DNA of 64,000 nt from an uncultured bacterium. GTDB lineage: Bacteria; Planctomycetota; UBA8742; UBA2392. A program made the translations under genes and the position numbers. The notes under the pieces are model-generated. The model ran no database searches, was not told where the DNA came from, and saw only the letters and a program-made list of their open reading frames with translations. The stretch is taken from contig CALLQI010000022.1 in assembly GCA_938014885.1 (NCBI GenBank), positions 121,679 to 185,678 of the forward strand, written 5' to 3'. The first letter of the stretch is position 1; each line of letters starts with the position of its first letter. Shown piece after piece: positions 7,726 to 54,198 of this stretch.

Positions 7726-10700
7726 CTATGGGCGACGCTTGCGCGGGGCCACGCCACGCGGGCGCCGCTGCGAAGACTCTTTGCCCGGCAGCTTTGGTTT
7801 GGCGTGCGGGCCTGACACCGGCTTGCCCGGCGCGGCCTTGGCAAGGGCCGGGCTACTGAGTTTGCGGGGGGCAGGTGCGGGCACAGTCGCCGGTGCCGGC
7901 ACGGTCGCCGGGGCCGGGGGCGGCGCGGCCACGATCGACGGGGCACTGGGCGGGCGTTTGGGCACCATCACGCCCGTCGGCGCGGTGGGCTTTGCAACCG
8001 GCGTAAAACCCGTGCGCGGGAACGGTACTTTGGGGCGCGCGGGGTCTGAGGCCTTTTCCAGTTTCACGCGCTTGCGCCGGCCCGAACGCGGCAGGTTGGG
8101 CTCAAGCTCTTCCAGCAGGTCGTCGGCCTCATCTTCAAGTTTGCGGCTGAGGTCATTGCCCAGCTCATGCAGCGAGGCCTTGGCCATTTCGATGATCTTG
8201 CGGGCTTCGTCTTTCTGGCCGACTTCGATCAGTGCTTTCGCGAGGCCGAGTTCCGACTCGGCCATCGGTTCAAAGCCATTGGCGCGGCGACCGGCGCAGC
8301 CGGTGCGCAGCAGGTCGATCCCCTTCAGGATGTCGCGGCGGTTGCGGGCTTCGCGGCCTTTCTCGATCCACGCGTTGCCGAGATTGCCCTGCACAACACT
8401 GACCGTGCGCAAATCCTTCACTTCCAAGCTCAGCTTCAGGGCATTCTCCAGTGCTTCAATGGCCGGGCCCGCGCGCTTCAGCTGCAACAGCATCGCTGCC
8501 ACGTTGCTTTCGGATATGGCCTCGGTCTGCTTTGAGCCCAGGTCGCGCGACAGTTCGCGGGCGCGCATGGCCACGCGAAGGGCCTCTTCGTCGCGATCCT
8601 GTTCGTGGTAGATGCGGGTCAGCGTGTTCAGGTGCTGCGCTTCCAGGTTGGTTGCGCCGACTTCGCGGGCTACACGCATCGCGCGCAGCAGGCTGGCTTC
8701 ACTGACCTGCTTGTCGCCCAGAAGGTGCGCGTTCAGGCCGATGCAGGCAAGCGCCTGGCTTTCAATTTGGTGATCGGCGTCTTCTTGCGCCAGCTTCAGC
8801 GCCTGCTGGTGATGCTCAAGCGCCTCGGCGTGCCGCCCGCCGCGCTGCAGGAACCAGCCCATCGAGTAATGCGCCTGCGAAAGTGTCGCGATGTCGCCCG
8901 ACTCCCGCGCATACCGCAGCGCCAGCTGGAAGTGTTCCATCGCTTCGGCCTTGTCACCGCCGGTGGCGATGTACGTGCCCAAGCGGTCGTGGCCGCGCGA
9001 AAGCAGCGTCGGCGAAAGCCCCTTGATCGCAAGCGCCTGCAGGGCCCGTTCGCGCGCGCGCTCGACGTTGCCGCTTTTGCTGTACCCGTAGCTCATGATC
9101 AGCAGCTTGCGGTACAGCGCAATGCCGTCGCACTTAATGCCCTCCAGCATCTCCAGCACGGACTCGGTCGAGGTGAAGATGCGCAGGGTGCCGTCGATGA
9201 TGTGCACCCACACCCACTCTTCGCTGCCTTCTTGAATGCCCGCCAGCGAGCGTCGCACCAGCTCAAGCGCCAGGTCTTTCTCGCCCAGGCTGTTCTGCAC
9301 GGGCGCCGCGATGACGGCCGCCCAGGCGCGCCATTCGGGCCGGTGTGTACGCCGCGCCACCTGCAGCAGGCCCTGCATTTCAAGCCGTGTGCGCCTGCGG
9401 CCTTCCAGTGAGCCCTCACGGGTGTTCTTCCACCACCACTTGCGCACGTACTCGATCAGCGACTTTTCAAACAGCTGCTCGGTCGGTTCCATCGCGCCCA
9501 TCGATTGCAGCCTCGCCAGCGCGAACAGGCGCACGGACTCATACAGCCGGAAGCGCCGCTCGCCCTCCAGCTCTGTCAGCCGGTCAAACGTGATCAGATT
9601 GTGCCGCAGCAGCGCGCGCACCAGTTCTTCGGGGCTGGCACCGGGCAGCACCTTCAGCATCAGCTCAGCAACATCAAGCTGGAAGCCGTCGGGGAACACG
9701 GACAGCATCATCAGCGCCCGCTGCTCGGTGTCATCCAGCAGCTCGAAACTCCAAGCCAGCGTGCCTTCAAGCGTGTCGCGTGAGGCCGCGCCGTCACGCT
9801 TCAGCAGCTCAAAACGCTGGTCCAGCTTTTCCAGTATCTGGCGCGGCGACATCACGGCCACGCGGGCAGCCGCCAGCTCAATCGCCTGCGGGATGCCATC
9901 CAGACGCGCCACGATGGCGGCAATGTCGCGGACATTGCCGCCATCGACGCGGAACGACGGGTCGTTCTCCTGCGCGCGCTGCGTGAACAGCGCGACACTG
10001 GGCAGCGACATCAGCTCGGCACTGGGGCGCTTTTCGCCTTCGCGCGGGGTGTCCAGCGGCTTCAGCACCACGCTGGTTTCACCGGGAAACTCAAGCGCAA
10101 AGCGGCTGGTCAGCACCACCCGCAGCGTTTTCACCCGCGACAGCCACTCCTGCACGCAGCGGCTGACTGAGTCGGCACTGGCCTCACAGTTATCCAACAA
10201 CAGCAGCGTCGCCGAACCCGCACCCTCCAGCGCCGCCGCGATGCGCAGCCCAAGACTTGCGGTACCCTCACCCACGCGCAAAGCCTGCGCGGTCAGGTTG
10301 CATACGCTGGCCACGTCACGGGCGTTGGCGAGGTCCACATACACCATGCCGCCGGGGAAACGTTCCTGCACCTGCTCGGCAGCGGCCACGGCAACGCGAG
10401 TCTTGCCGGCGCCGGCGGGGCCCGAAACGGTGATCGCACGGGCCTGGTCCGACCGCAGCAGCGCCACCACCTGCTCCATGTCGCGGTCGCGACCCACCAA
10501 AGTCGTGTCGTAGCGCGGCAGGTTGTCTTTGGAGTCGCGGGTCTCTGCCACCAGCGGCTTAAACTTCGGCGGCGGCTGCAACACGTGCAGCGCCAACAGC
10601 GTTTCGTCGTCGGATTGCGTGGCCCCCGCGCGGAACCCGTCAACGTCCGCGCGGATGGCCTCAACCATGCCGTGCAGCGGCATGCCCTGCCTTGCGCCGA

Positions 10701-11343
10701 TCGTGCGGTACAGGCGTTCTTCGCCGTACATCTCTTTCTTGTGGTTGAAGGCTTCGGTGATGCCGTCGGTGTACAGCAGCAGTAAATCGCCGGGGGTCAG
10801 CTGGAAGAACTCTTCGCGCAGATGCTTTTTCAGCTCCGTCGATTGCAGCACGCCCAGCACCGGCGCGTTGCCGTGGGTCCACTTGTCGCGCAGCTTGCCG
10901 CCGCGCATCAGGATTGGCGGGTTGTGCCCCGCACTGGCAAAGCAGAAGCGCCGGTTGCGGATGTCCAACATGCCGTACAGCGCCGACAAGAACATCCCGC
11001 GCGGTAAGTCGGCCCGGATGCTGTCATTCACCTCAAGCAGCACCTGTTTGGGCGAAAGGCAGCCACGGCCACAGATCTGGAGTACTTTCTTGGCCGCCGC
11101 CATCAGCAATGCTGCCGCGGCGCCGTGCCCGCTGACGTCAGCCATCACGATGCCGAGTCGCCAGCTATCGACCATGATGAAGTCGTAGAAGTCGCCGCCC
11201 AAAAGGTCGCAGGGCCGGTACGAAGCCGCCAGCTCAAGGCCCGAAACGTTGGGCACTTCAGGAAGCATGGACAACTGCACCTTCCGGGCGCGTTCGAGCT
11301 CGGAGGCGCTGTTGCCCATCATCGCGGATCGTTCAAGTCCCAT
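7726..11343 (-). CDS. PP2C/SpoIIE-type phosphatase - STAND (NB-ARC-like) P-loop NTPase - TPR protein with basic Pro-rich C-terminal tail
   Basis: N-terminal PPM motifs GGDFYDF, ADVSGHG, YTDGITE, QSDDETL; Walker A GPAGAGKT and Walker B LLLLDNCE; 8 or more TPR-like helical repeats; tail PKRPPSAPSIVAAPPPAPATVPAPATVPAPAPRK...PRKRRP. Confidence 0.85.
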   Translation of the reverse strand: MGLERSAMMGNSASELERARKVQLSMLPEVPNVSGLELAASYRPCDLLGGDFYDFIMVDSWRLGIVMADVSGHGAAAALLMAAAKKVLQICGRGCLSPKQVLLEVNDSIRADLPRGMFLSALYGMLDIRNRRFCFASAGHNPPILMRGGKLRDKWTHGNAPVLGVLQSTELKKHLREEFFQLTPGDLLLLYTDGITEAFNHKKEMYGEERLYRTIGARQGMPLHGMVEAIRADVDGFRAGATQSDDETLLALHVLQPPPKFKPLVAETRDSKDNLPRYDTTLVGRDRDMEQVVALLRSDQARAITVSGPAGAGKTRVAVAAAEQVQERFPGGMVYVDLANARDVASVCNLTAQALRVGEGTASLGLRIAAALEGAGSATLLLLDNCEASADSVSRCVQEWLSRVKTLRVVLTSRFALEFPGETSVVLKPLDTPREGEKRPSAELMSLPSVALFTQRAQENDPSFRVDGGNVRDIAAIVARLDGIPQAIELAAARVAVMSPRQILEKLDQRFELLKRDGAASRDTLEGTLAWSFELLDDTEQRALMMLSVFPDGFQLDVAELMLKVLPGASPEELVRALLRHNLITFDRLTELEGERRFRLYESVRLFALARLQSMGAMEPTEQLFEKSLIEYVRKWWWKNTREGSLEGRRRTRLEMQGLLQVARRTHRPEWRAWAAVIAAPVQNSLGEKDLALELVRRSLAGIQEGSEEWVWVHIIDGTLRIFTSTESVLEMLEGIKCDGIALYRKLLIMSYGYSKSGNVERARERALQALAIKGLSPTLLSRGHDRLGTYIATGGDKAEAMEHFQLALRYARESGDIATLSQAHYSMGWFLQRGGRHAEALEHHQQALKLAQEDADHQIESQALACIGLNAHLLGDKQVSEASLLRAMRVAREVGATNLEAQHLNTLTRIYHEQDRDEEALRVAMRARELSRDLGSKQTEAISESNVAAMLLQLKRAGPAIEALENALKLSLEVKDLRTVSVVQGNLGNAWIEKGREARNRRDILKGIDLLRTGCAGRRANGFEPMAESELGLAKALIEVGQKDEARKIIEMAKASLHELGNDLSRKLEDEADDLLEELEPNLPRSGRRKRVKLEKASDPARPKVPFPRTGFTPVAKPTAPTGVMVPKRPPSAPSIVAAPPPAPATVPAPATVPAPAPRKLSSPALAKAAPGKPVSGPHAKPKLPGKESSQRRPRGVAPRKRRP

Positions 11344-11455
11344 GAGCCCTACAGTTTAGGAACTGTCAGAAACGATTGTCATCACCAATGCGTCATATTC
11401 CAGCACCTATCGATCAAGACTTCGCGTGGCCGTCGGCTACCGGTAGAATACCCCC
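11344..11455. promoter_or_regulatory. divergent intergenic region shared by the STAND-phosphatase gene (minus) and the AAA ATPase operon (plus)
   Basis: 112-bp gap between the two start codons; lower GC than flanks (tcagaaacgattgtcatcaccaatgcgtcatattccagcacctatcgatcaag). No promoter motif confirmed. Confidence 0.35.
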
Positions 11456-12952
11456 ATGGAACGCGCCGACCCGGTCTCCGAACTTGCGCTGCTGATCCGC
11501 ACCCGGCACCCGCTGATCACCATCGAAACCGTGGAAGAAGCCCGCGCGTTCGAGTTCGTGATGCGCGCCTGCCACCGCGTCAACCTGCACAAGTTCCGCT
11601 GGAGTGTCACGCGCGGCCTGCACCGCACCCGCCCCCAGTTTGCAGAGCCGGTGATGGAGACCGAAGAACCCCGCCGCGCGCTGGCACACCTGCTGCACGG
11701 CGACCTGCCCGGCATATACGTGTTCGCCGACCTGATGCCGCACCTGACCACTGCCGTGGACCAACGCCTGCTGCGCGAAGTCGTCGAACACGCGGAACGC
11801 AAAGGCCAGACCATTATCCTGATTGAGCAACGATTGAATCTGCCGCCGGCCCTTGAGCGTCTGGCTGTACCCTTCGACCTCGCGTTACCCGACGAAGCTG
11901 CCATACGCGACCTGGCGTCGCGCACCTTCAAGGAAATCGGCGAGATCGCTCATGTGAAGGTCGAAATCAAGCGCTCGGAACTGGACGACCTGCTGCGCAA
12001 CCTGCGCGGCCTGACCACCAATGAAGTACGGCGCGCGATCTGGCGCGCCGCACTGGATGATGGCCGCATCGACGCCGCCGACGTAAAGGGCGTGCTGCAG
12101 CTCAAGCAAGAGAAGCTGCGCGAAGGCGGCATGCTGGAGTACATCGAGCCCGGCATCAAGCTCGACGACATCGGCGGGCTGAACCGGCTGAAAGAGTGGC
12201 TGCGCCTGCGTGAGCGCGCACTGACGCCCGAAGCCCGCGAGTTCGGCCTGGCCCCGCCGCGCGGCATTCTGCTGCTGGGTGTGCAGGGCGCGGGCAAAAG
12301 CATGTGCGCCCGCGCCGTGGCCGCGGCCTGGAACCTGCCGCTGCTGCGCATGGACCCGGGTGCCCTGTACGACAAGTACGTCGGCGAGTCCGAGAAGCAG
12401 CTTCGGCGCGCATTGCGCACCGCCGAGGCCATGGCGCCGCTGGTGCTGTGGATCGACGAGATTGAGAAGGGATTCGCCAGTGCGGCCTCGCAAAGCACCG
12501 ACGGCGGGCTTTCGCAGCGCATGTTCGGGACGCTGCTTTCCTGGATGCAGGACAACCGCGCGCCGATTTTTCTGGTGGCCACAGCCAATGACATCTCCGC
12601 GCTGCCGCCTGAGTTGATGCGCAAGGGCCGCTTTGACGAAATCTTTTTCGTGGACCTTCCTGACGCGCCCGCCCGCGAGCAGATACTCGCGGTGCACCTA
12701 GAGCGCCGCAAACGCGACCCCAAGAACTTTGATCTCAAGGCGCTTGCTGCCGCATCCGACGGTTTCAGCGGCGCTGAGCTGGAACAGGCCATTGTCAGCG
12801 CCCTGTACGCAGCGTTTGCGGCCGGCACGGAACTCAGCACGCAAGGCTTGCTGGATGAGCTCGGCCGCACACGCGCGATCAGCGTTACCATGGCAGAGCG
12901 CATCACCGAGTTGCGCGACTGGGCCGCCGACCGCTGCGTGCCCGCCAACTGA
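11456..12952 (+). CDS. AAA+ family ATPase (classic clade) with about 230-aa N-terminal domain of unknown function
   Basis: Walker A LLLGVQGAGKS, Walker B VLWIDEIE, second region of homology with Arg fingers ATANDISALPPELMRKGRFDE, sensor-2 SGAELEQA. Confidence 0.85.
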   Translation: MERADPVSELALLIRTRHPLITIETVEEARAFEFVMRACHRVNLHKFRWSVTRGLHRTRPQFAEPVMETEEPRRALAHLLHGDLPGIYVFADLMPHLTTAVDQRLLREVVEHAERKGQTIILIEQRLNLPPALERLAVPFDLALPDEAAIRDLASRTFKEIGEIAHVKVEIKRSELDDLLRNLRGLTTNEVRRAIWRAALDDGRIDAADVKGVLQLKQEKLREGGMLEYIEPGIKLDDIGGLNRLKEWLRLRERALTPEAREFGLAPPRGILLLGVQGAGKSMCARAVAAAWNLPLLRMDPGALYDKYVGESEKQLRRALRTAEAMAPLVLWIDEIEKGFASAASQSTDGGLSQRMFGTLLSWMQDNRAPIFLVATANDISALPPELMRKGRFDEIFFVDLPDAPAREQILAVHLERRKRDPKNFDLKALAAASDGFSGAELEQAIVSALYAAFAAGTELSTQGLLDELGRTRAISVTMAERITELRDWAADRCVPAN

Positions 12953-13013: not shown

Positions 13014-13388
13014 ATGTCGTCCACCCAGCTTGACCAGTTTGCCGCCGCCGCGCTGCAAGGCCTGCTTACCCGCGGTGGCTTCACAGACTACGACGAACTT
13101 GCGCGTGAGGCCTTCCAGATCGCCCGGGCGATGATGGCTGAGCGCCTGCGCCAGTCGGAATTGCCGGATAGTGAAGGCGAGGCCGGAGACCTGATGGAAG
13201 CCGCGATTGACTCGCTGGAGCTGCCGCTGCGCGTGATCAAGAAGCTGCGTGCGCTGGGTGTGAGCACTGTGCGCGACCTGACGCTGACTACGGAGAAAGC
13301 GATCCGCGCCACCGGCCTGAAGGACGAGAGCATGGACGAAATCCGCCAGGCGCTGCACCGGCTGGGGCTCAACATCGCCAGCTCGTAG
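13014..13388 (+). CDS. free-standing RNA polymerase alpha-subunit C-terminal-domain (alphaCTD)-like protein
   Basis: C-terminal 55 aa IDSLELPLRVIKKLRALGVSTVRDLTLTTEKAIRATGLKDESMDEIRQALHRLGL matches the alphaCTD helix-hairpin-helix consensus (compare E. coli RpoA LELSVRSANCLK..GIHTVGDLV..LLKTPNLGKKSLTEIK). Confidence 0.6.
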   Translation: MSSTQLDQFAAAALQGLLTRGGFTDYDELAREAFQIARAMMAERLRQSELPDSEGEAGDLMEAAIDSLELPLRVIKKLRALGVSTVRDLTLTTEKAIRATGLKDESMDEIRQALHRLGLNIASS

Positions 13389-14343: not shown

Positions 14344-17300
14344 CTATCCGATGCGCGGCGGGCGGCGACGCTTGCGCGGCACCTTTCCGGTGGGGCTTGC
14401 GCCCTTGCGCTTCACGGGCAGCGGGGCCCTTGCCGGGGTCGGGGCCTGCGCCGGACTTGATTCCACCATCGAATCCAGCAGTTTTCGCGCGCGTTCGGCC
14501 AGTGACGTGCCGTACTGGTCGCCGCGATGTGCAGCCGCATCCAGTGCCTGCTGCGCGAAGGTCTTGGCCTCTTGCTTCTTGCCCGACTCAAGCAGCAGCT
14601 CCGCCAGTGAAACTTCGCCGTTGATCAGCGGGTCGAAACCCAGCCGCCTGCGCTCGGTACAGGCGCGCTGCAGCGCGTCGGTCGCGGCCAGCAGATCTTT
14701 CTTGTCGCGATCGGCACGCCAGCGAATCGCGTGGACTTCACCGATGTTGCTCAGCACACCCAGCGCCGTACGCAGGTCCTTCAACTCAAGCAATGTCTGG
14801 TAGGCCTGCTTTAGTGATTCCAGTGCTGAGCTGCTGTCGCCCAGCTCGACCTTGATTGCCGCGATGTTGCTCTCGGCCACGGCCTCAACAACGCGGTCGC
14901 CGAATTCGCGGGCGACGTCGCGGGCCTGCACACACGAATTCAGGGCTTCCTGCACGCGTCCTTGTTCGAAGTACACGTTGGCCGCGCCATTCAGGCACTT
15001 GGCCAGCGTGCCCGGGCTGCCGGCCTCGCGCGCGATGCGGATGCTGCGCTGGATTGCGGCTTCAGCCTGGTGGCGCTCGCCGATCAGGTTGCTTGCACCC
15101 GCGAGTCCGGCCAGTGCCTGCGCTTCCTGCACCCGCATGCCGCGGTCCTGTGCGATGCGGATCGCGTCGGTGAAGTGCGGCAGCGCGCCGGAAGGATCGC
15201 CGGTGCGCTGGTGCCACTGCCCGAACTGGATCAGCAGCCGCACGTGCAGCTCGCGATACTTCTTGTCGATGCAGACCTTCAGCGCTGACTCAAGACAGGC
15301 GTGCGCCTCGCGGTGGCGGCCGATGCGCTCATACAGGGTGCTCATGTACGAATTCACCCGCGCGCCGTTAATCGCGCCCAGCAGGCCCGAGTTCATTGCC
15401 GCGGTGAAGCAGCGCGCCGAGTCCGACATGCGCCCAAGCTGCATCAGCGCGCGGCCGCGCAGAATGTTGGCGTGGCACAGCGCGAGGCCATCGCCTTTGA
15501 ACTCGGACAGCAGCCGCTCGGTCTCTTCGGGCGATGAGGCCAGCTTCAGCTCGGCCTCGGTAACTTTCAGCCAGTGCCACTCTTCGCAGCCGGGCAGCAG
15601 GCCGTCGTGGGCCTTGAGCACCATTTCCGTGGCGCGCTGGGTTTCGCCCTGCGTTTGCAACGCGGGGGCCAGCATCACGGTGGCGGTGGCGCGGGCCTCA
15701 GGCAGGCTGGTCGAGCGCGAGATTTCTTCCAGGCCCGCGGCTTCCATGCGCAGGCGCTCTTCGGCCTGCACGTGGCCTTCTCGCTTGTCGGTGCTCCACC
15801 AGCGCAGTGCGTAGCCAAGCAGCGCGGCCTCTTGCCGCCGCCGCGTGGCGTCAAGCTGGCCGGCGGCCTTCAGTTTCTCGAGCATGAACAGCCGGAAGGT
15901 CTCAAACAGCGCGTAACGCGGCTCGTTCTCAAGTTCATGGATCGCGTCGGTGTACAAAAGGCTATGGCGCGAAAGGCGCTGCAGCAGCTCGGGCGGTTTG
16001 GCCGGTGCCAGGGCTTTCAACAGTTCGGCGGCGACATCGGGGCCGAACCCGTCGGGGCAGCAGGCAAGCATGCCGGCGGCCGCGCGTTCCGTTTCATCGA
16101 GCAGCTCGTAACTCCAGGCCAAGGCGCCGCGCAGGGTTCCCTTCTCGCCTTCGGCCCGCAGCAGGTCCAAACGCTCATCCAGACGGTCAATGATCTGGCG
16201 CGGGCTCAGCAGGCCGGCGCGCACGGCGGCAAGTTCAATGGCGTGCGGGATGCCATCGAGGCGCTGGCAGATTTCGACCACCTCGCGATAGTTGCTGTCG
16301 GTGATGGCAAAGCCCGGGTCTTCCCGACGCGCGAACTCCGCGAACAGCATCACGGCGGGCAGCGCACGTGCTTCCTCAAGTGAGAAACGAATCTTGCGGG
16401 TGCCGGAAAGCTGCATCAGGGGCTTCACCGCGATGCTGCTTTCACCGGGCAAATCCAGTTGCGCGCGGCTGGTGGCAATCACGCAAACACCGGGGGCGCG
16501 CTGGCGCCACTCTTCGACGCAGCGGGCAACGGCCTTCGTGCAGCCCTCACAGTTGTCGAGCAACAGCAGGATCGGCCCGGGCGCGTTGCCCAGCGCCACG
16601 CCTACGCGATAGCCAAGGCTGGCATCTTCCTGGCCCAGGTGCAGCACGTTGGCCACGCGCCGGCAGATGTCGGCGACGGTCTTGGCCGCTTGCAACTCGA
16701 CGTAGCACACGCCGCCCTTGAAGTGATCGCGCGCGCGCGCGGCCACGTGAATCGCCAGCCGCGTTTTGCCTACGCCGGCGGGGCCGGTCAGCGTGACCAC
16801 CGTACCGGGCTTGCCGGTCAGCAGGGCCAGCAGCGCTTCTACGTCGCGTTCGCGGCCGATCAGCGGGGTGCGGTATTCGGGCAGCCATGTCGGCGCCACG
16901 GTCACGGGCGGGGTCAGTGCGGTTTCGGGCGCACCCTCGACGCGGATGGCGACAAGCGTTTCGTCGTCGGTCAGCGGGGTGCCCGCGCGCAGCGCGTCGG
17001 TAGTGCGGGCCAGCCGTGTCAACAGTTCAGCGGCTTTGCCTGACTGGCGCATGGTCTCATGCAGTTTCTCGCGACCAAGCGTGTTGCCATTCCGATCTGC
17101 CGCCAGCAGCAGGCCGTCAGTGTACAGCAACAGCATGTCGCCCGGTTCAAGTTGCAGCGAATGCTCAGCCAGCTTGCCCTCAAGAATCCGCGATGGAAAC
17201 AGGCCCAGTGCCGGGCCGGCCGCACCGGGCGCGACGTCGGCCACTCCCCGCCGCAGCAGGCTTGGCAGGTGGTGCCCGGCGCTGACCCAGGTGATGCGGT

Positions 17301-17742
17301 GGGTCTGCGTGTCCAGAATGGCGTACAAGATGGTGACGAACATTTCGCGCGGCAGGTCCGCGCGGATCGCCTCGTTCACTTCCGACAGCGCCTTCAGCGG
17401 CGACAGGCAGCCCCGCGCGCAGATCTGCAGTGCCTTCTTGGTTGAGGCCATCATCAGGGCTGCCGCCGCGCCCTGGCCTGAAACGTCGGCCACGGCGATC
17501 CCGAGGTGACGCTCGTCGATGCGGATGAAGTCGTAGAAGTCGCCGCCCAGGCGTTCGCTGGTGCGGTACTCGGCCGCGAACTCAAGTCCTTTGGCGTGGG
17601 GCAGGTCGGGCAGCATGGTGCGCTGCACATCGCGCGCGCGCTCGATGCTGCGTGTGTGGTGCCCCTTGCCGTCGCGACTGTCTGCCATGCACGCTCGGTT
17701 TGCCCAGGGACTTCGATTGGATAAGGCCGCGAAGCCTAGCAC
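14344..17742 (-). CDS. PP2C/SpoIIE phosphatase - STAND NTPase - TPR protein, paralog of 7726..11343
   Basis: GGDFYDF, ADVSGQG (His to Gln), YTDGLL, TDDETL; Walker A GPAGVGKT, Walker B ILLLLDNCE; TPR array; tail PVKRKGASPTGKVPRKRRRPPRIG. About 60% identity to the other copy across the phosphatase domain by eye. Confidence 0.85.
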   Translation of the reverse strand: MLGFAALSNRSPWANRACMADSRDGKGHHTRSIERARDVQRTMLPDLPHAKGLEFAAEYRTSERLGGDFYDFIRIDERHLGIAVADVSGQGAAAALMMASTKKALQICARGCLSPLKALSEVNEAIRADLPREMFVTILYAILDTQTHRITWVSAGHHLPSLLRRGVADVAPGAAGPALGLFPSRILEGKLAEHSLQLEPGDMLLLYTDGLLLAADRNGNTLGREKLHETMRQSGKAAELLTRLARTTDALRAGTPLTDDETLVAIRVEGAPETALTPPVTVAPTWLPEYRTPLIGRERDVEALLALLTGKPGTVVTLTGPAGVGKTRLAIHVAARARDHFKGGVCYVELQAAKTVADICRRVANVLHLGQEDASLGYRVGVALGNAPGPILLLLDNCEGCTKAVARCVEEWRQRAPGVCVIATSRAQLDLPGESSIAVKPLMQLSGTRKIRFSLEEARALPAVMLFAEFARREDPGFAITDSNYREVVEICQRLDGIPHAIELAAVRAGLLSPRQIIDRLDERLDLLRAEGEKGTLRGALAWSYELLDETERAAAGMLACCPDGFGPDVAAELLKALAPAKPPELLQRLSRHSLLYTDAIHELENEPRYALFETFRLFMLEKLKAAGQLDATRRRQEAALLGYALRWWSTDKREGHVQAEERLRMEAAGLEEISRSTSLPEARATATVMLAPALQTQGETQRATEMVLKAHDGLLPGCEEWHWLKVTEAELKLASSPEETERLLSEFKGDGLALCHANILRGRALMQLGRMSDSARCFTAAMNSGLLGAINGARVNSYMSTLYERIGRHREAHACLESALKVCIDKKYRELHVRLLIQFGQWHQRTGDPSGALPHFTDAIRIAQDRGMRVQEAQALAGLAGASNLIGERHQAEAAIQRSIRIAREAGSPGTLAKCLNGAANVYFEQGRVQEALNSCVQARDVAREFGDRVVEAVAESNIAAIKVELGDSSSALESLKQAYQTLLELKDLRTALGVLSNIGEVHAIRWRADRDKKDLLAATDALQRACTERRRLGFDPLINGEVSLAELLLESGKKQEAKTFAQQALDAAAHRGDQYGTSLAERARKLLDSMVESSPAQAPTPARAPLPVKRKGASPTGKVPRKRRRPPRIG

Positions 17743-17778
17743 ATGCGGGCGGCGCGGTTAAGGGGCTTGGAGCCGCCC

Positions 17779-18803
17779 TCAAGCCTTGTTGAGCGCGTGC
17801 AGCTCGCGCAGGGTCTGCGGGTCGCATTCGAGCGTCAGGATGTCGCCCGCCTGCACCGTGTTGCTGGTTGGCGGGTGAAACACGGCGCCTTCGCCGCGCT
17901 TTTGGCTGATCACGACCAGCTGGAAGCGCTTGACCATGTCCCCCACCGTCAGCTTCGTCATCTCGCAGTCGTTGACCACGGTGATGCGCGCGACCACCAG
18001 CAGGCGGCCGTCGACGTAGAAGCTGTTGATCACGCAGGGGTCGATGCTGGCCGTGGCGAACAAAGGTGCCGATAGCATGGCCGTGCTGAACGCCAGGTGG
18101 ATGTTCATGGTGTCGCGGATTTTCTCGGCCAGTTCCTGGTCGTACATGCGCAGCACCACCCGGATGTCCGGCTTGACCTTGCGGGCATCGATGGCGAGCT
18201 CGAGGTTTGCCAAGTCGTCGTCGGTGCAGCAGATTACGCTGCGCGCGCGCTCGACGCCCATTTCTTCGAGGATGCCTTCTTCGCGATGGGTGCCGACGCG
18301 CACCGGCACGCCGTGATGGCGCGCGTAGGCGAAGTTGGGGCTGTGCTCGTTCTTTTCGATCACCACAACTTCCTGCTTCAGCTCCACCAGCTGCTGCAAC
18401 ACGCGAAAGCCGACCTTGCCGAGGCCGAACAGGATGACGTGGTTATGCAGAGTTGAAGTCATGGCTCGCACCCATTCCGGAGACTTTTCATCGCGCCGAA
18501 ACGCGTAGTAGGAAAACCGCACCAGGCCGTCCAGCACCACGACAATCCCGGTCAGCGGCAGCAAGTAGTACAGCACTTCAAGCAGCCAGTGGCTGGGCCA
18601 ATCCAGCACGGGCTCGCCGGTCAGCAACGCAAACGTGGTCCAGATTGACTGCGACAGTGACAGCGGCTGGTCATACAGGTTGTGAAACGCGACGCCGCCC
18701 AGCAGCACCACCGCCACCGCAAAGAAGAACAGCGGCAGAAACTGCCGTATCGGCCGGCGCAGGTAGTACAGCCAGGCCTGAAGTCTGCGTTTGCGTGTGC
18801 GCA
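17779..18803 (-). CDS. RCK/TrkA-N plus TrkA-C domain membrane protein (putative ion channel with non-canonical pore region)
   Basis: Start taken at internal ATG (MRTRKRRLQAW...); 2-3 TM segments, then NAD-binding-like RCK fold (VILFGLGKVGFRVLQQL) and a TrkA-C-like tail; no canonical TVGYGD filter. Confidence 0.65.
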
Positions 18804-18830
18804 TGTTTGCCCGCCGGGATAACCCGTGCC

Positions 18831-19475
18831 CTACCCGGCCCACTTTGCCCGAAGTTGGTCGTTGATGCCAATGCGCGTCACCTCGCGCCCGCCGATCGAC
18901 ACCCCGGCCTGCGAGTTCAGTACCGTCAGCACCAGCGCCGGCCGCGCCATGCTGGCGGCGAAGTCGTGTACCGTGGCGCGTTCGCGCTGGGCCAACAGGG
19001 CGGCGATGCCGCCGGCAAGTTCCGACTCGGACACTTTTGCGGCCGCGCGCCACAGGCGCAGTTCGCGCCAGGCCTGCACTGTGGCCCAGCCCGCGAACAG
19101 CAGCACGACGCGACTTAGCTTGATGAGGAAGATCTCAATCCAGACCCATGCTTCTGCCGGCGCGTAGGCGTCGCCTTCTTCGCCGATCTCGATCGTTTTC
19201 AGCCACAGCGGCCCATCGGCGAGTGCAAGGCGCTTCACGTTGCGCCAGTTGACCCAGGTGCCGATGACCCAAAAGACAATCACCAGCGCGTAGCCAGCCG
19301 GGATAATCCACGGCTCCGAGCGCAGCAGCAGCGCTAGCAAGTACACAAACAGCAGCCCCGTGAAACCGCCCGCAAGCAGCCCCACAAACGAGTAAAACGC
19401 CGCCCCCACCAGCGCATGGTGGCGCGCGTCCTGCTTCATGACCCGCGCGGCGTGGAAGTGGTCGTCCGGGTTCAT
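18831..19475 (-). CDS. membrane protein, unknown function
   Basis: ORF with 4 predicted TM helices; start overlaps the upstream gene stop by 4 bp (ATGA), suggesting translational coupling. Confidence 0.5.
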   Translation of the reverse strand: MNPDDHFHAARVMKQDARHHALVGAAFYSFVGLLAGGFTGLLFVYLLALLLRSEPWIIPAGYALVIVFWVIGTWVNWRNVKRLALADGPLWLKTIEIGEEGDAYAPAEAWVWIEIFLIKLSRVVLLFAGWATVQAWRELRLWRAAAKVSESELAGGIAALLAQRERATVHDFAASMARPALVLTVLNSQAGVSIGGREVTRIGINDQLRAKWAG

Positions 19476-20203
19476 TGCAGCATCCGCTCCAGGTCAGAAC
19501 GCAGGTCGCTGTTCAGAGCAACACACGGGAAGCCGCGCGCCGTGAACAGCACGCCCGGGATGTGCTGCAACGCCTTTAATGCCGCCGCCAGTTGCGGCTC
19601 GTTCACTTCGGCCTCAAGGTCATACAGGCTTATCCGCCGCGCCGCCGTGTACAGGAAAATCAGCACTCGTGTGGCCGGCCACGGATCAGCGGCGCGCAAG
19701 GCTCCGGCATCCCAGAAGTGCTGTACAGCAAGGCCGAACAGCCAGGCCGGGATCGTGAGCAGATTGACCAGCGTGTTGCCTTCTTCGGCCTCGCGGGTGT
19801 CCTGGGTTTCAACCAGCGCGCTTGGCGTGAACTGTTCGTCGATGATGCGCACTGTGCCTGAGGCGAGCTTCGTGACATGGCCCTTCTTGCGCCCCCATAT
19901 CCAGTACACGGGATGCATGAGTATCAGAACCACCAGAGGAAGGATGAAGACCCAGACGCCCAGCACATCGCCCGCATGCGCACCCGCATAGCGACCACCC
20001 CTGGCGACGACCGCGACGGACAGCCACACCAGAATCACGTACACAACCACATGCGCGACAACAGACAGCGCCGTCAACGCCGCCACCGAATACAGGCTGT
20101 GCAAGGCATGTTTGCGAAGCTCGCGCGTCAGCCAGCCATGCACAAACTCGGTGGCCTCGCCACGCCGCAAGCCTTCCATCGTCTGGGAGGTGCCCCCTGC
20201 CAT
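19472..20203 (-). CDS. membrane protein, unknown function
   Basis: Long hydrophobic segments (VVAHVVVYVILVWLSVAVV; ILPLVVLILMHPVYWIW); first gene of a same-strand four-gene cluster ending with the STAND phosphatase. Confidence 0.5.
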   Translation of the reverse strand: MAGGTSQTMEGLRRGEATEFVHGWLTRELRKHALHSLYSVAALTALSVVAHVVVYVILVWLSVAVVARGGRYAGAHAGDVLGVWVFILPLVVLILMHPVYWIWGRKKGHVTKLASGTVRIIDEQFTPSALVETQDTREAEEGNTLVNLLTIPAWLFGLAVQHFWDAGALRAADPWPATRVLIFLYTAARRISLYDLEAEVNEPQLAAALKALQHIPGVLFTARGFPCVALNSDLRSDLERMLQ

Positions 20204-20580
20204 GCAGACATTCTGCGAATCGCCGCGCGACCAGGCCGCTACAAAACCAGACCCGATTTCGCCGCCCGGTCAAAGGCGCGCAGCGCCGGGCAACGATACG
20301 CTGTCCGCTTTGCGGGCTTCCCGCGATGCAGGCCGCCACAGCCGGGTCGCTCCTCCGTGGCTTCTGTGCTCTCTGCTGTGAACGCTGTTAAAGGAGGGCG
20401 GGCGCGGTTTGCCTTGTCTTGCAAGGCTCTCCGCGCCCGTTCTTGGCCTGTCCCCGGGTCGTTTGCGGCCCTGGTCGCCACGTTGCCGGGGGAGGCAACG
20501 GTAGGTGGCGGGAGCCGCCTCGCCTGAGGCAGGGTCGGGTGTTTCCCGACACCCCTACAGTACGGCCTCAGGTCCCCGGC

Positions 20581-20620
20581 CGCGATTACAACGCACCCCG
20601 GCATTTATACCGGGGTGCGC
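20581..20620 (-). terminator. candidate rho-independent terminator downstream of the GspE-family gene
   Basis: Hairpin gcaccccgg-cattta-ta-ccggggtgc; on the minus strand it is followed by GTTGTAATCG. Confidence 0.4.

Positions 20621-54121: not shown

Positions 54122-54198
<77 letters not shown>

Follow-up and report, generated by a model that had tools for sequence, protein, structure and literature searches.

Linkage of a GYG-less, MthK-like RCK protein to SpoIIE-type phosphatase genes in Planctomycetota and Anaerolineae

Pores gated by RCK domains are represented by MthK, the Ca2+-gated RCK K+ channel of Methanothermobacter (PDB 1LNQ, 6OLY and 6U68), and the combination of a K+-channel fold with an unusual filter has been documented in a Ca2+-activated channel of Tsukamurella, which is described as a non-selective, Ca2+-dependent cation channel (PMC5052707). 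SpoIIE, RsbU and RsbP are PP2C phosphatases that act in partner switching, and STAND NTPases are found both in regulators such as MalT and AfsR and in the antiviral Avs and bNACHT proteins. In plants, a PP2C docks on and tunes Shaker K+ channels that opposing kinases phosphorylate (AKT2-AtPP2CA and AKT1-AIP1/CIPK23). Literature searches returned no described link between an RCK domain and PP2C, as none of the papers in the library searched mentions both, and nothing relevant on PP2C-STAND architectures. Here we analyze a stretch of 64,000 nucleotides (hereafter the window) from an uncultured bacterium of the Planctomycetota (GenBank assembly GCA_938014885.1, contig CALLQI010000022.1, positions 121,679 to 185,678), in which the gene for an MthK-like RCK protein lies between the genes for two small membrane proteins and the gene for a PP2C-STAND-TPR phosphatase.

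The reading favored here, to which we assign a probability of about 0.5, is that these genes specify a vertically inherited, chromosomal, channel-like membrane module that is functionally coupled to Ser/Thr phosphatase signalling. The observations behind it are the anatomy of the genes, the predicted folds of their products, the intact motifs, the conservation of the adjacency and the existence of a comparable linkage in another phylum. The window has a GC content of 64% and is Planctomycete-like, and the four open reading frames follow each other along its minus strand in the order A, B, RCK and STAND2, with a second phosphatase gene, STAND1, located beyond them. An earlier note, based on the letters of the window and their translations, had described the four genes as encoding a membrane protein, a second membrane protein, an RCK/TrkA membrane protein and a STAND phosphatase, and this description is borne out by the open reading frames and by domain searches. 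The features are as follows:

19472-20203, minus strand: gene A, open reading frame, 243 amino acids
18831-19475, minus strand: gene B, open reading frame, 214 amino acids
17779-18804, minus strand: RCK gene, open reading frame with Pfam domains, 341 amino acids
17689-17778, minus strand: RCK-STAND2 spacer, 90 nucleotides
14344-17688, minus strand: STAND2, 1114 amino acids counted from the ATG at 17688
7726-11343, minus strand: STAND1, with Pfam domains, 1205 amino acids

The junctions between these genes differ in part from those first reported. The stop codon of A and the start codon of B do share the sequence ATGA, an overlap of 4 nucleotides, and the B stop codon is separated from the RCK start by 26 nucleotides instead of 27; both junctions are consistent with co-transcription. 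The RCK start, ATG 18804, is fixed by some 120 homologues (335-412 amino acids, mostly 341-356) that open alike with MR(S/T)..RR. The gap of 36 nucleotides previously given between RCK and STAND2 corresponds to a GTG start at 17742, and a start at ATG 17688 yields a gap of 90 nucleotides. In locus L085 (related loci are designated here by L numbers), which carries a STAND2 orthologue with 96% identity, the GTG is replaced by CTG and the frame is broken by a 1-nucleotide indel, whereas ATG 17688 and the 33 nucleotides that precede it are identical in both loci. STAND2 therefore most likely starts at ATG 17688, at 90 nucleotides from RCK.

The RCK protein matches the TrkA_N (5.5e-22) and TrkA_C (1e-7) domains of Pfam over the cut-offs of both. 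Its residues 25-333 align collinearly with residues 23-328 of MthK in phmmer, and its AlphaFold2 (AF2) model, with a mean predicted local distance difference test (pLDDT) value of 83, contains helices at residues 4-43, 50-61 and 73-102. Foldseek searches with this model returned full-length MthK as the top matches (E=2e-15 over ~330 columns). All three analyses place two transmembrane helices around a re-entrant pore helix, in the order M1, pore helix, loop, M2, TrkA_N and TrkA_C. The loop that follows the pore helix reads LLTGEPVLDWPSH, with LTGEP at the filter position and neither GYG nor GFG, in agreement with the initial observation that the canonical K+ selectivity filter is lacking. The T-V-G-Y/F-G filter is likewise absent from all of the ~80 family members compared, which belong to Planctomycetota, Chloroflexi and Myxococcales. 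This GYG-less RCK family, with 645 matches at E<=1e-10 in one search and members in three phyla, is uncharacterised as far as these searches show. Judging from the modelled fold and the altered loop, the RCK protein would most likely conduct cations non-selectively, conduct divalent cations, or act as a sensor that does not conduct.

Two candidate sites in this protein were considered and rejected. The position of Glu64 is occupied by E, Q, D or N across the family, and its variation between phyla led us to discard a family-wide EEEE ring. The AFST(A/S)xLxAP loop was discarded as a phospho-site because it is modelled with low AF2 confidence and is kept in every member regardless of PP2C linkage; it presumably corresponds to the usual KTN/RCK strand-helix crossover. 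Separately, Met115 (~18460-18462), located six residues ahead of the first Rossmann strand, is conserved in 49 of 50 Planctomycete RCK proteins, the position being M, I or V in Chloroflexi and L in Myxococcales. We take this site to match the internal start M107 of MthK, which makes soluble RCK subunits, and a second, shorter RCK product starting at Met115 is possible.

Both phosphatases encompass a SpoIIE-type PP2C domain (PF07228; 2e-43 in STAND2 and 1e-45 in STAND1), a STAND P-loop NTPase and TPR repeats matching TPR_12 (9e-24 in STAND2 and over the cut-off in STAND1). Matches to AAA_16, NB-ARC, NACHT and nSTAND fell under their cut-offs in both proteins, and the top NCBIfam likeness of the NTPase part, to AfsR, was far under the cut-off. 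The PP2C Asp motifs DVSG(Q/H)G, YTDG and DDET and the Walker A and B motifs are present in STAND1 and STAND2, reading DVSGQG, YTDG, DDET, GPAGVGKT (Walker A) and LLLLDN (Walker B) in the latter. The phosphatases adjacent to RCK in other genomes are 43-49% identical to STAND1 versus 38-43% to STAND2, and in a neighbor-joining tree STAND1 groups with these RCK-adjacent proteins (L007 and L010), whereas STAND2 and its L085 orthologue branch outside. STAND1 is thus orthologous to the phosphatase encoded after RCK in relatives, and STAND2 is a deeper paralogue. In the lineage of the window, STAND2 and an inverted block encoding an AAA ATPase, an RpoA-CTD-like protein and an NmrA-like protein separate RCK from STAND1.

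The conservation of this arrangement was assessed in a clade set of 20 loci, comprising the window and 19 loci with RCK proteins at least 60% identical, drawn from one-genome-per-species and metagenome collections. In 19 of the 20 loci (all but L051), RCK is preceded in the same orientation by an A-like gene, either single or as a tandem pair, and a PP2C-STAND-TPR gene begins 16-120 nucleotides after RCK in 16, with L006, L008, L017 and L086 devoid of it. The same-strand linkage proposed for the window is hence a conserved grouping, in which conservation is highest for A, RCK and STAND and the outer genes vary (SIR2, a 438-residue protein, NmrA, 2-hydroxyacid dehydrogenase and flotillin). The STAND slot next to RCK has been kept through tandem duplication (L013 and L014) and through paralogue replacement (the window and L085).

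Within the grouping, the A and RCK genes can be found apart from the phosphatase. The region 7701-11023 of L006 (= L001) contains, in tandem, an A-like gene, an N-terminal RCK fragment, a second A-like gene and an intact RCK gene. In L086, a 2.4-kb A-B-RCK cassette (76% nucleotide identity; RCK 93% identical at the protein level) is the sole homology to the window, and it sits in an unrelated context without STAND. A-RCK without STAND also occurs in L006, L008 and L017. From the L006 duplication and the L086 cassette, the core unit is A(-B)-RCK. The RCK fragment of L006 extends over ~190 amino acids in two frames; in this locus STAND has been lost and a flotillin gene comes next after RCK.

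A second link between the RCK family and PP2C was detected in the Chloroflexi. In 10 of 22 loci from this phylum, all from Anaerolineae, the gene for a stand-alone SpoIIE-type PP2C of ~235 amino acids (PF07228, 6.5e-22) precedes RCK in the same orientation, at a distance of 6-147 nucleotides. The reverse search, anchored on the Anaerolineae PP2C, found RCK directly downstream (24-211 nucleotides) in 33 of 73 informative metagenome loci. In most of the remaining loci the next gene encodes a mini P-loop protein of ~125 amino acids, which also follows RCK where RCK is present, defining the order PP2C-[RCK]-mini-P-loop. The mini P-loop protein has sub-threshold AAA_18/dNK-like matches and carries the motifs GxCxxGK[ST], QEHS and LIYLD. 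Loci of this type (a subset of L053-L084, and L087-L166) have RCK between PP2C and the mini P-loop gene in ~45% of cases, often with YajC upstream and with an RseP-like M50 protease or other genes downstream. The Anaerolineae link is operonic but facultative. In the RCK tree, the PP2C-linked Anaerolineae clade is distant from the STAND-linked Planctomycete clade, and unlinked lineages lie between them. In the flanks of ~50 loci without a phosphatase next to RCK, a search with the SpoIIE profile revealed no further SpoIIE open reading frames. Since a SpoIIE-type phosphatase is operonic with a GYG-less RCK gene in Anaerolineae too, the pairing of RCK and phosphatase is probably functional.

In this reading, the region consists of two linked units, an A-B-RCK operon and a downstream, same-strand gene for a PP2C-STAND-TPR phosphatase. 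The RCK protein would form an MthK-type, RCK-gated tetrameric pore whose filter has been replaced by a non-K+ loop. A and B, lineage-specific, fast-evolving, translationally coupled to RCK and predicted to carry a winged-helix domain, would probably be accessory or regulatory subunits. The ancestral phosphatase copy would be of the STAND1 type, with a promoter of its own, and its paralogue STAND2 would fill the adjacent slot in the lineage of the window. The channel-like RCK protein and the SpoIIE-type phosphatase would then be members of a single membrane circuit of Ser/Thr phospho-signalling, in which the phosphatase could dephosphorylate the RCK complex or its partners and so set gating or, alternatively, could sense whether the RCK ring has bound a nucleotide or an ion; a switch based on ligand-triggered oligomerisation would be contributed by the STAND-TPR part. 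Physical interaction between these proteins, ion conduction, the direction in which the signal runs and the part played by A and B are what we infer from the evidence above. A more specific version, which we consider doubtful, is that of an undescribed phospho-regulated pore, in which an MthK-like RCK protein without GYG would serve a SpoIIE-type PP2C exclusively, in two phyla with differing add-ons: a STAND-TPR switch and A/B in Planctomycetota, and a stand-alone PP2C with a mini P-loop NTPase in Anaerolineae. The pore protein would in that case be either the substrate of the phosphatase or its membrane sensor.

Several results weigh against a functional coupling between RCK and the phosphatase. 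Four of the 20 clade loci lack an adjacent phosphatase, and no adjacent phosphatase was found at 29 other Planctomycete loci (RCK 44-55% identical), at the divergent locus L082 or at the Myxococcales loci; none of the loci outside the clade set has an A-like neighbor either, and the 29 Planctomycete loci share no conserved partner gene. The constant partner of PP2C in Anaerolineae is the mini P-loop protein, with RCK present in less than half of the loci. Allowing for the four to five lineages examined, a rough estimate puts chance adjacency in a second phylum at 0.05-0.1; the statistics are hence modest, chance being moderately unlikely, and the link is supportive without being decisive. A segment of ~25 kb is syntenic across relatives with RCK proteins 61-77% identical, encompassing DUF502, a 368-residue protein, GspE, the cluster itself, the flotillins and a Ser/Thr kinase-WD40 protein. 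Given this synteny, the RCK-STAND adjacency could partly be inherited gene order, and may to that extent reflect inertia and not selection. No kinase, STAS protein or phospho-site was identified for the circuit among the genes scanned; in particular, neither a STAS substrate nor a HATPase_c kinase or anti-sigma factor was detected among those between 512 and 24699, and no STAS substrate or HATPase_c kinase was found in the Anaerolineae PP2C operons. Finally, a promoter-like motif specific to the STAND1-type gene makes its separate transcription likely. In Myxococcales, RCK homologues with 38-40% identity (L052, L061, L065, L078 and others) have a TfuA-like gene of ~750 codons upstream and an M3 oligopeptidase gene downstream, which is a third, different conserved context of the RCK family.

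The earlier note had regarded a promoter or terminator between the genes as incompatible with a single cluster. A scan for consensus sigma-70 promoters and terminators, which performed at chance level, identified no promoter- or terminator-like site inside the three intergenic spacers; its terminator-like matches all fell within coding sequence, in numbers not above those of shuffled sequence. The RNA of the RCK-STAND2 spacer showed no unusual fold (z=+0.76), and an Rfam scan gave no match in the cluster region, the only match in the whole window being a single tRNA gene (54125-54198, minus strand). Comparison between loci pointed to two sites outside the RCK-STAND2 spacer:

20231-20263, minus strand: candidate promoter or 5' element of A-B-RCK, ~30-60 nucleotides upstream of the A start
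11353-11382, minus strand: promoter-like ATGACA-N18-TAAACT, 9 nucleotides ahead of the STAND1 ATG

The first is a conserved block, the sole part of the 440-nucleotide spacer between GspE and A that aligns with L085, whose upstream context otherwise differs. In the RCK-STAND2 spacer, the block TTAACC-N17-TGcTAGGCT differs from its L085 counterpart by three substitutions, all of them between the hexamers, and constitutes a candidate promoter of STAND2. The second site has a similar motif ahead of STAND1 in L085, and 11 related loci contain GTGACA-N16/17-TTGAAT in the RCK-STAND spacer, 7-19 nucleotides ahead of the ATG. Of the 19 hits that a relaxed pattern gave across the 2.66 Mb searched, 13 are these sites. 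Conservation of this motif ahead of STAND1-type genes therefore points to a probable sigma-70-like promoter belonging to the ancestral phosphatase gene itself, with a very short leader. Orthologous RCK-STAND spacers thus do contain a promoter-like motif, and the notion of a single tight operon is partly undermined: the STAND gene is not obligate in the unit and carries its own conserved promoter-like motif. On the other side of the cluster, a GC-rich hairpin without a T-run (GCGCACCCCGG-tataaat-GCCGGGGTGCG; 20590-20620, minus strand) lies directly 3' of the GspE/PilB stop codon, and may be a transcript end that sets GspE apart from the A-B-RCK unit.

The alternative that best withstands these data is that RCK and the phosphatases are neighbors without a shared function, A-B-RCK being a self-contained cation channel operon and the STAND proteins independent of it, in an order that was simply inherited. 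We consider this possible. It would account for the promoter-like motif ahead of STAND1-type genes, for the occurrence of A-B-RCK or A-RCK without STAND in L086, L006, L008 and L017, for the majority of RCK-family members that have no phosphatase neighbor, and for the broad regional synteny; STAND paralogues also occur elsewhere in the region, adjoining GspE or the RpoA-CTD-like gene. It is harder to reconcile with the persistence of the RCK-STAND adjacency while surrounding genes change, with the retention of the STAND slot through duplication and replacement, and with the independent operonic link between PP2C and RCK in Anaerolineae.

The remaining alternatives involve the proteins A and B. 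Hydropathy analysis assigned two strong hydrophobic helices and a weaker third to each of them, which gives two to three transmembrane helices and agrees with their description as membrane proteins. In the AF2 model of A (pLDDT 85.8; predicted template modelling score 0.75), an N-terminal helix and two transmembrane helices are followed by a beta-hairpin and by a long helix of weak hydrophobicity, and the C-terminus folds into a winged-helix-like domain. Structure searches with A returned no significant whole-protein match and only local, non-significant matches to MarR/ArsR-type winged helices (E>=0.17), and neither A nor B matched a family in Pfam, NCBIfam or PADLOC. In hmmsearch, a profile of the A family aligns B along nearly its full length (E=5e-12), so A and B are, by sequence, diverged tandem paralogues. 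The A family is tiny: an exhaustive profile search of 1.84 billion proteins yielded 23 representatives (76-252 amino acids, most 212-252), and word-indexed searches returned four proteins with a single query and nine with a profile. B-type copies are limited to the window, L085 and L086. Relative to L085, A and B are 79% and 87% identical, versus 95-98% for their neighbors, and relative to L086 they are 66% and 52% identical, versus 93% for RCK; the two genes evolve 3-10 times faster than their neighbors. The ratio of non-synonymous to synonymous substitution rates (dN/dS) is 0.1-0.5 for A and B (0.2 for A), compared with 0.02-0.075 for the neighbors. These values indicate that A and B are real coding genes under purifying selection, and positive selection on them was rejected on the same grounds.

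It has to be considered whether A and B could be membrane-tethered winged-helix transcription regulators that control the operon according to the state of the channel, with the STAND phosphatase as a separate output. The C-terminal winged-helix fold in the high-confidence model of A and the invariable position of A directly upstream of RCK are in line with this idea, but the winged-helix matches are non-significant, and the C-terminal domain would be periplasmic if there are three transmembrane helices. Contacts between proteins are another known function of winged helices. We therefore view transcriptional regulation by A and B as improbable.

The remaining alternative is the analogy with abortive-infection systems drawn in the earlier note. 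In such a system, the STAND-TPR protein would sense a phage cue and open the channel, directly or by dephosphorylation, leading to collapse of the membrane potential, with A and B as specificity or sensor subunits. A STAND NTPase that combines a repeat sensor with an enzymatic domain at its N-terminus, next to a pore-type membrane protein, has the appearance of such a system, as does the SIR2-family gene divergently adjacent in 10 related loci, and yet only the rapid evolution of A and B and the presence of the A-B-RCK cassette in two genomic contexts (the window and L086) point to defence. For the STAND proteins, PADLOC gave no more than generic TPR (2e-10) and weak P-loop likeness (TRIP13 or mad8), and it matched none of RCK, A and B; the syntenic ~25 kb provide a conserved chromosomal context, with inheritance in the clade that looks vertical; the neighborhood contains no integrases, transposases or further defence genes; no relative of the RCK family was found on the viral contigs searched; the dN/dS of A and B, below 1, indicates relaxed rather than diversifying selection; the RCK channel is widespread without STAND; and PP2C is not known to act as a toxic effector. 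The analogy is hence unsupported, and a role in defence very improbable.

Other genes of the region deserve mention in their own right. The SIR2-family gene of the ten related loci, coding for 256-272 amino acids, lies divergently upstream of the A-like gene (including L001 6821-7639 and L002 8443-9213) and is absent from the corresponding position in the window. The inverted block of the window includes, at 11456-12952 on the plus strand and divergent from STAND1, the gene for a CDC48/PAN-like single-AAA ATPase of 498 amino acids, whose score against the anti-phage IteA model (84.9 bits, for a cut-off of 510) reflects only generic AAA likeness. It also includes, at 13014-13388 on the plus strand, the gene for a stand-alone, 124-residue RpoA-CTD-like protein (PF03118, 3.7e-7) that is conserved throughout the syntenic region of the clade. 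Copies of the latter lie at 7827-8198 in L002 and at 6124-6495 in L017, and in L002/L020 and L017 the gene is found within a few nucleotides after a third STAND-phosphatase paralogue. The plus-strand segment 512-5447 contains a Ser/Thr kinase-WD40 gene (512-2521), a gene for a 185-residue protein and two Band_7/flotillin genes, and L001 and L002 have these genes downstream of the cluster as well, so that the kinase may be the enzyme opposing the PP2Cs.

RCK channels and PP2C or STAND proteins are familiar on their own; the region combines a GYG-less RCK family, an orphan accessory family and a recurrent association with PP2C of which the literature searches returned no description. Should the pairing be functional, it would show how Ser/Thr phospho-signalling is tied to ion or membrane status in bacteria, and would provide the first candidate partner for the abundant PP2C-STAND-TPR proteins of Planctomycetes. 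It also introduces a note of caution for genome scans, as a STAND ATPase adjoining a pore protein is not in itself evidence of abortive infection.

In comparison with MthK, the RCK protein is equal in length and collinear in architecture, but only 17-20% identical; the loop LTGEP..WPSH replaces the TVGYG filter, and the gene is linked to A and B and, in two lineages, to PP2C. The Tsukamurella NaK-type channel lacks an RCK domain and has a proline-rich filter unlike that of the window RCK protein; the comparison is one of fold. STAND1 and STAND2 share with SpoIIE, RsbU and RsbP a SpoIIE-type PP2C with metal-binding Asp motifs joined to sensory modules, but no STAS or HATPase_c gene is present among those scanned within ~14 kb, and a STAND NTPase and TPR repeats take the place of an RsbU N-domain, PAS or transmembrane domains. 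With MalT, AfsR, Avs and bNACHT, the window phosphatases share the tripartite layout of an N-terminal output, a P-loop STAND NTPase and C-terminal TPR repeats; they differ in that the output is a phosphatase and not a helix-turn-helix or toxic effector domain, in matching no PADLOC model, and in their core-chromosomal, syntenic context. The Shaker-PP2C pairs of plants are eukaryotic, have non-homologous regulatory domains and show no genomic linkage, and offer no more than an analogy for a phosphatase acting on a channel.

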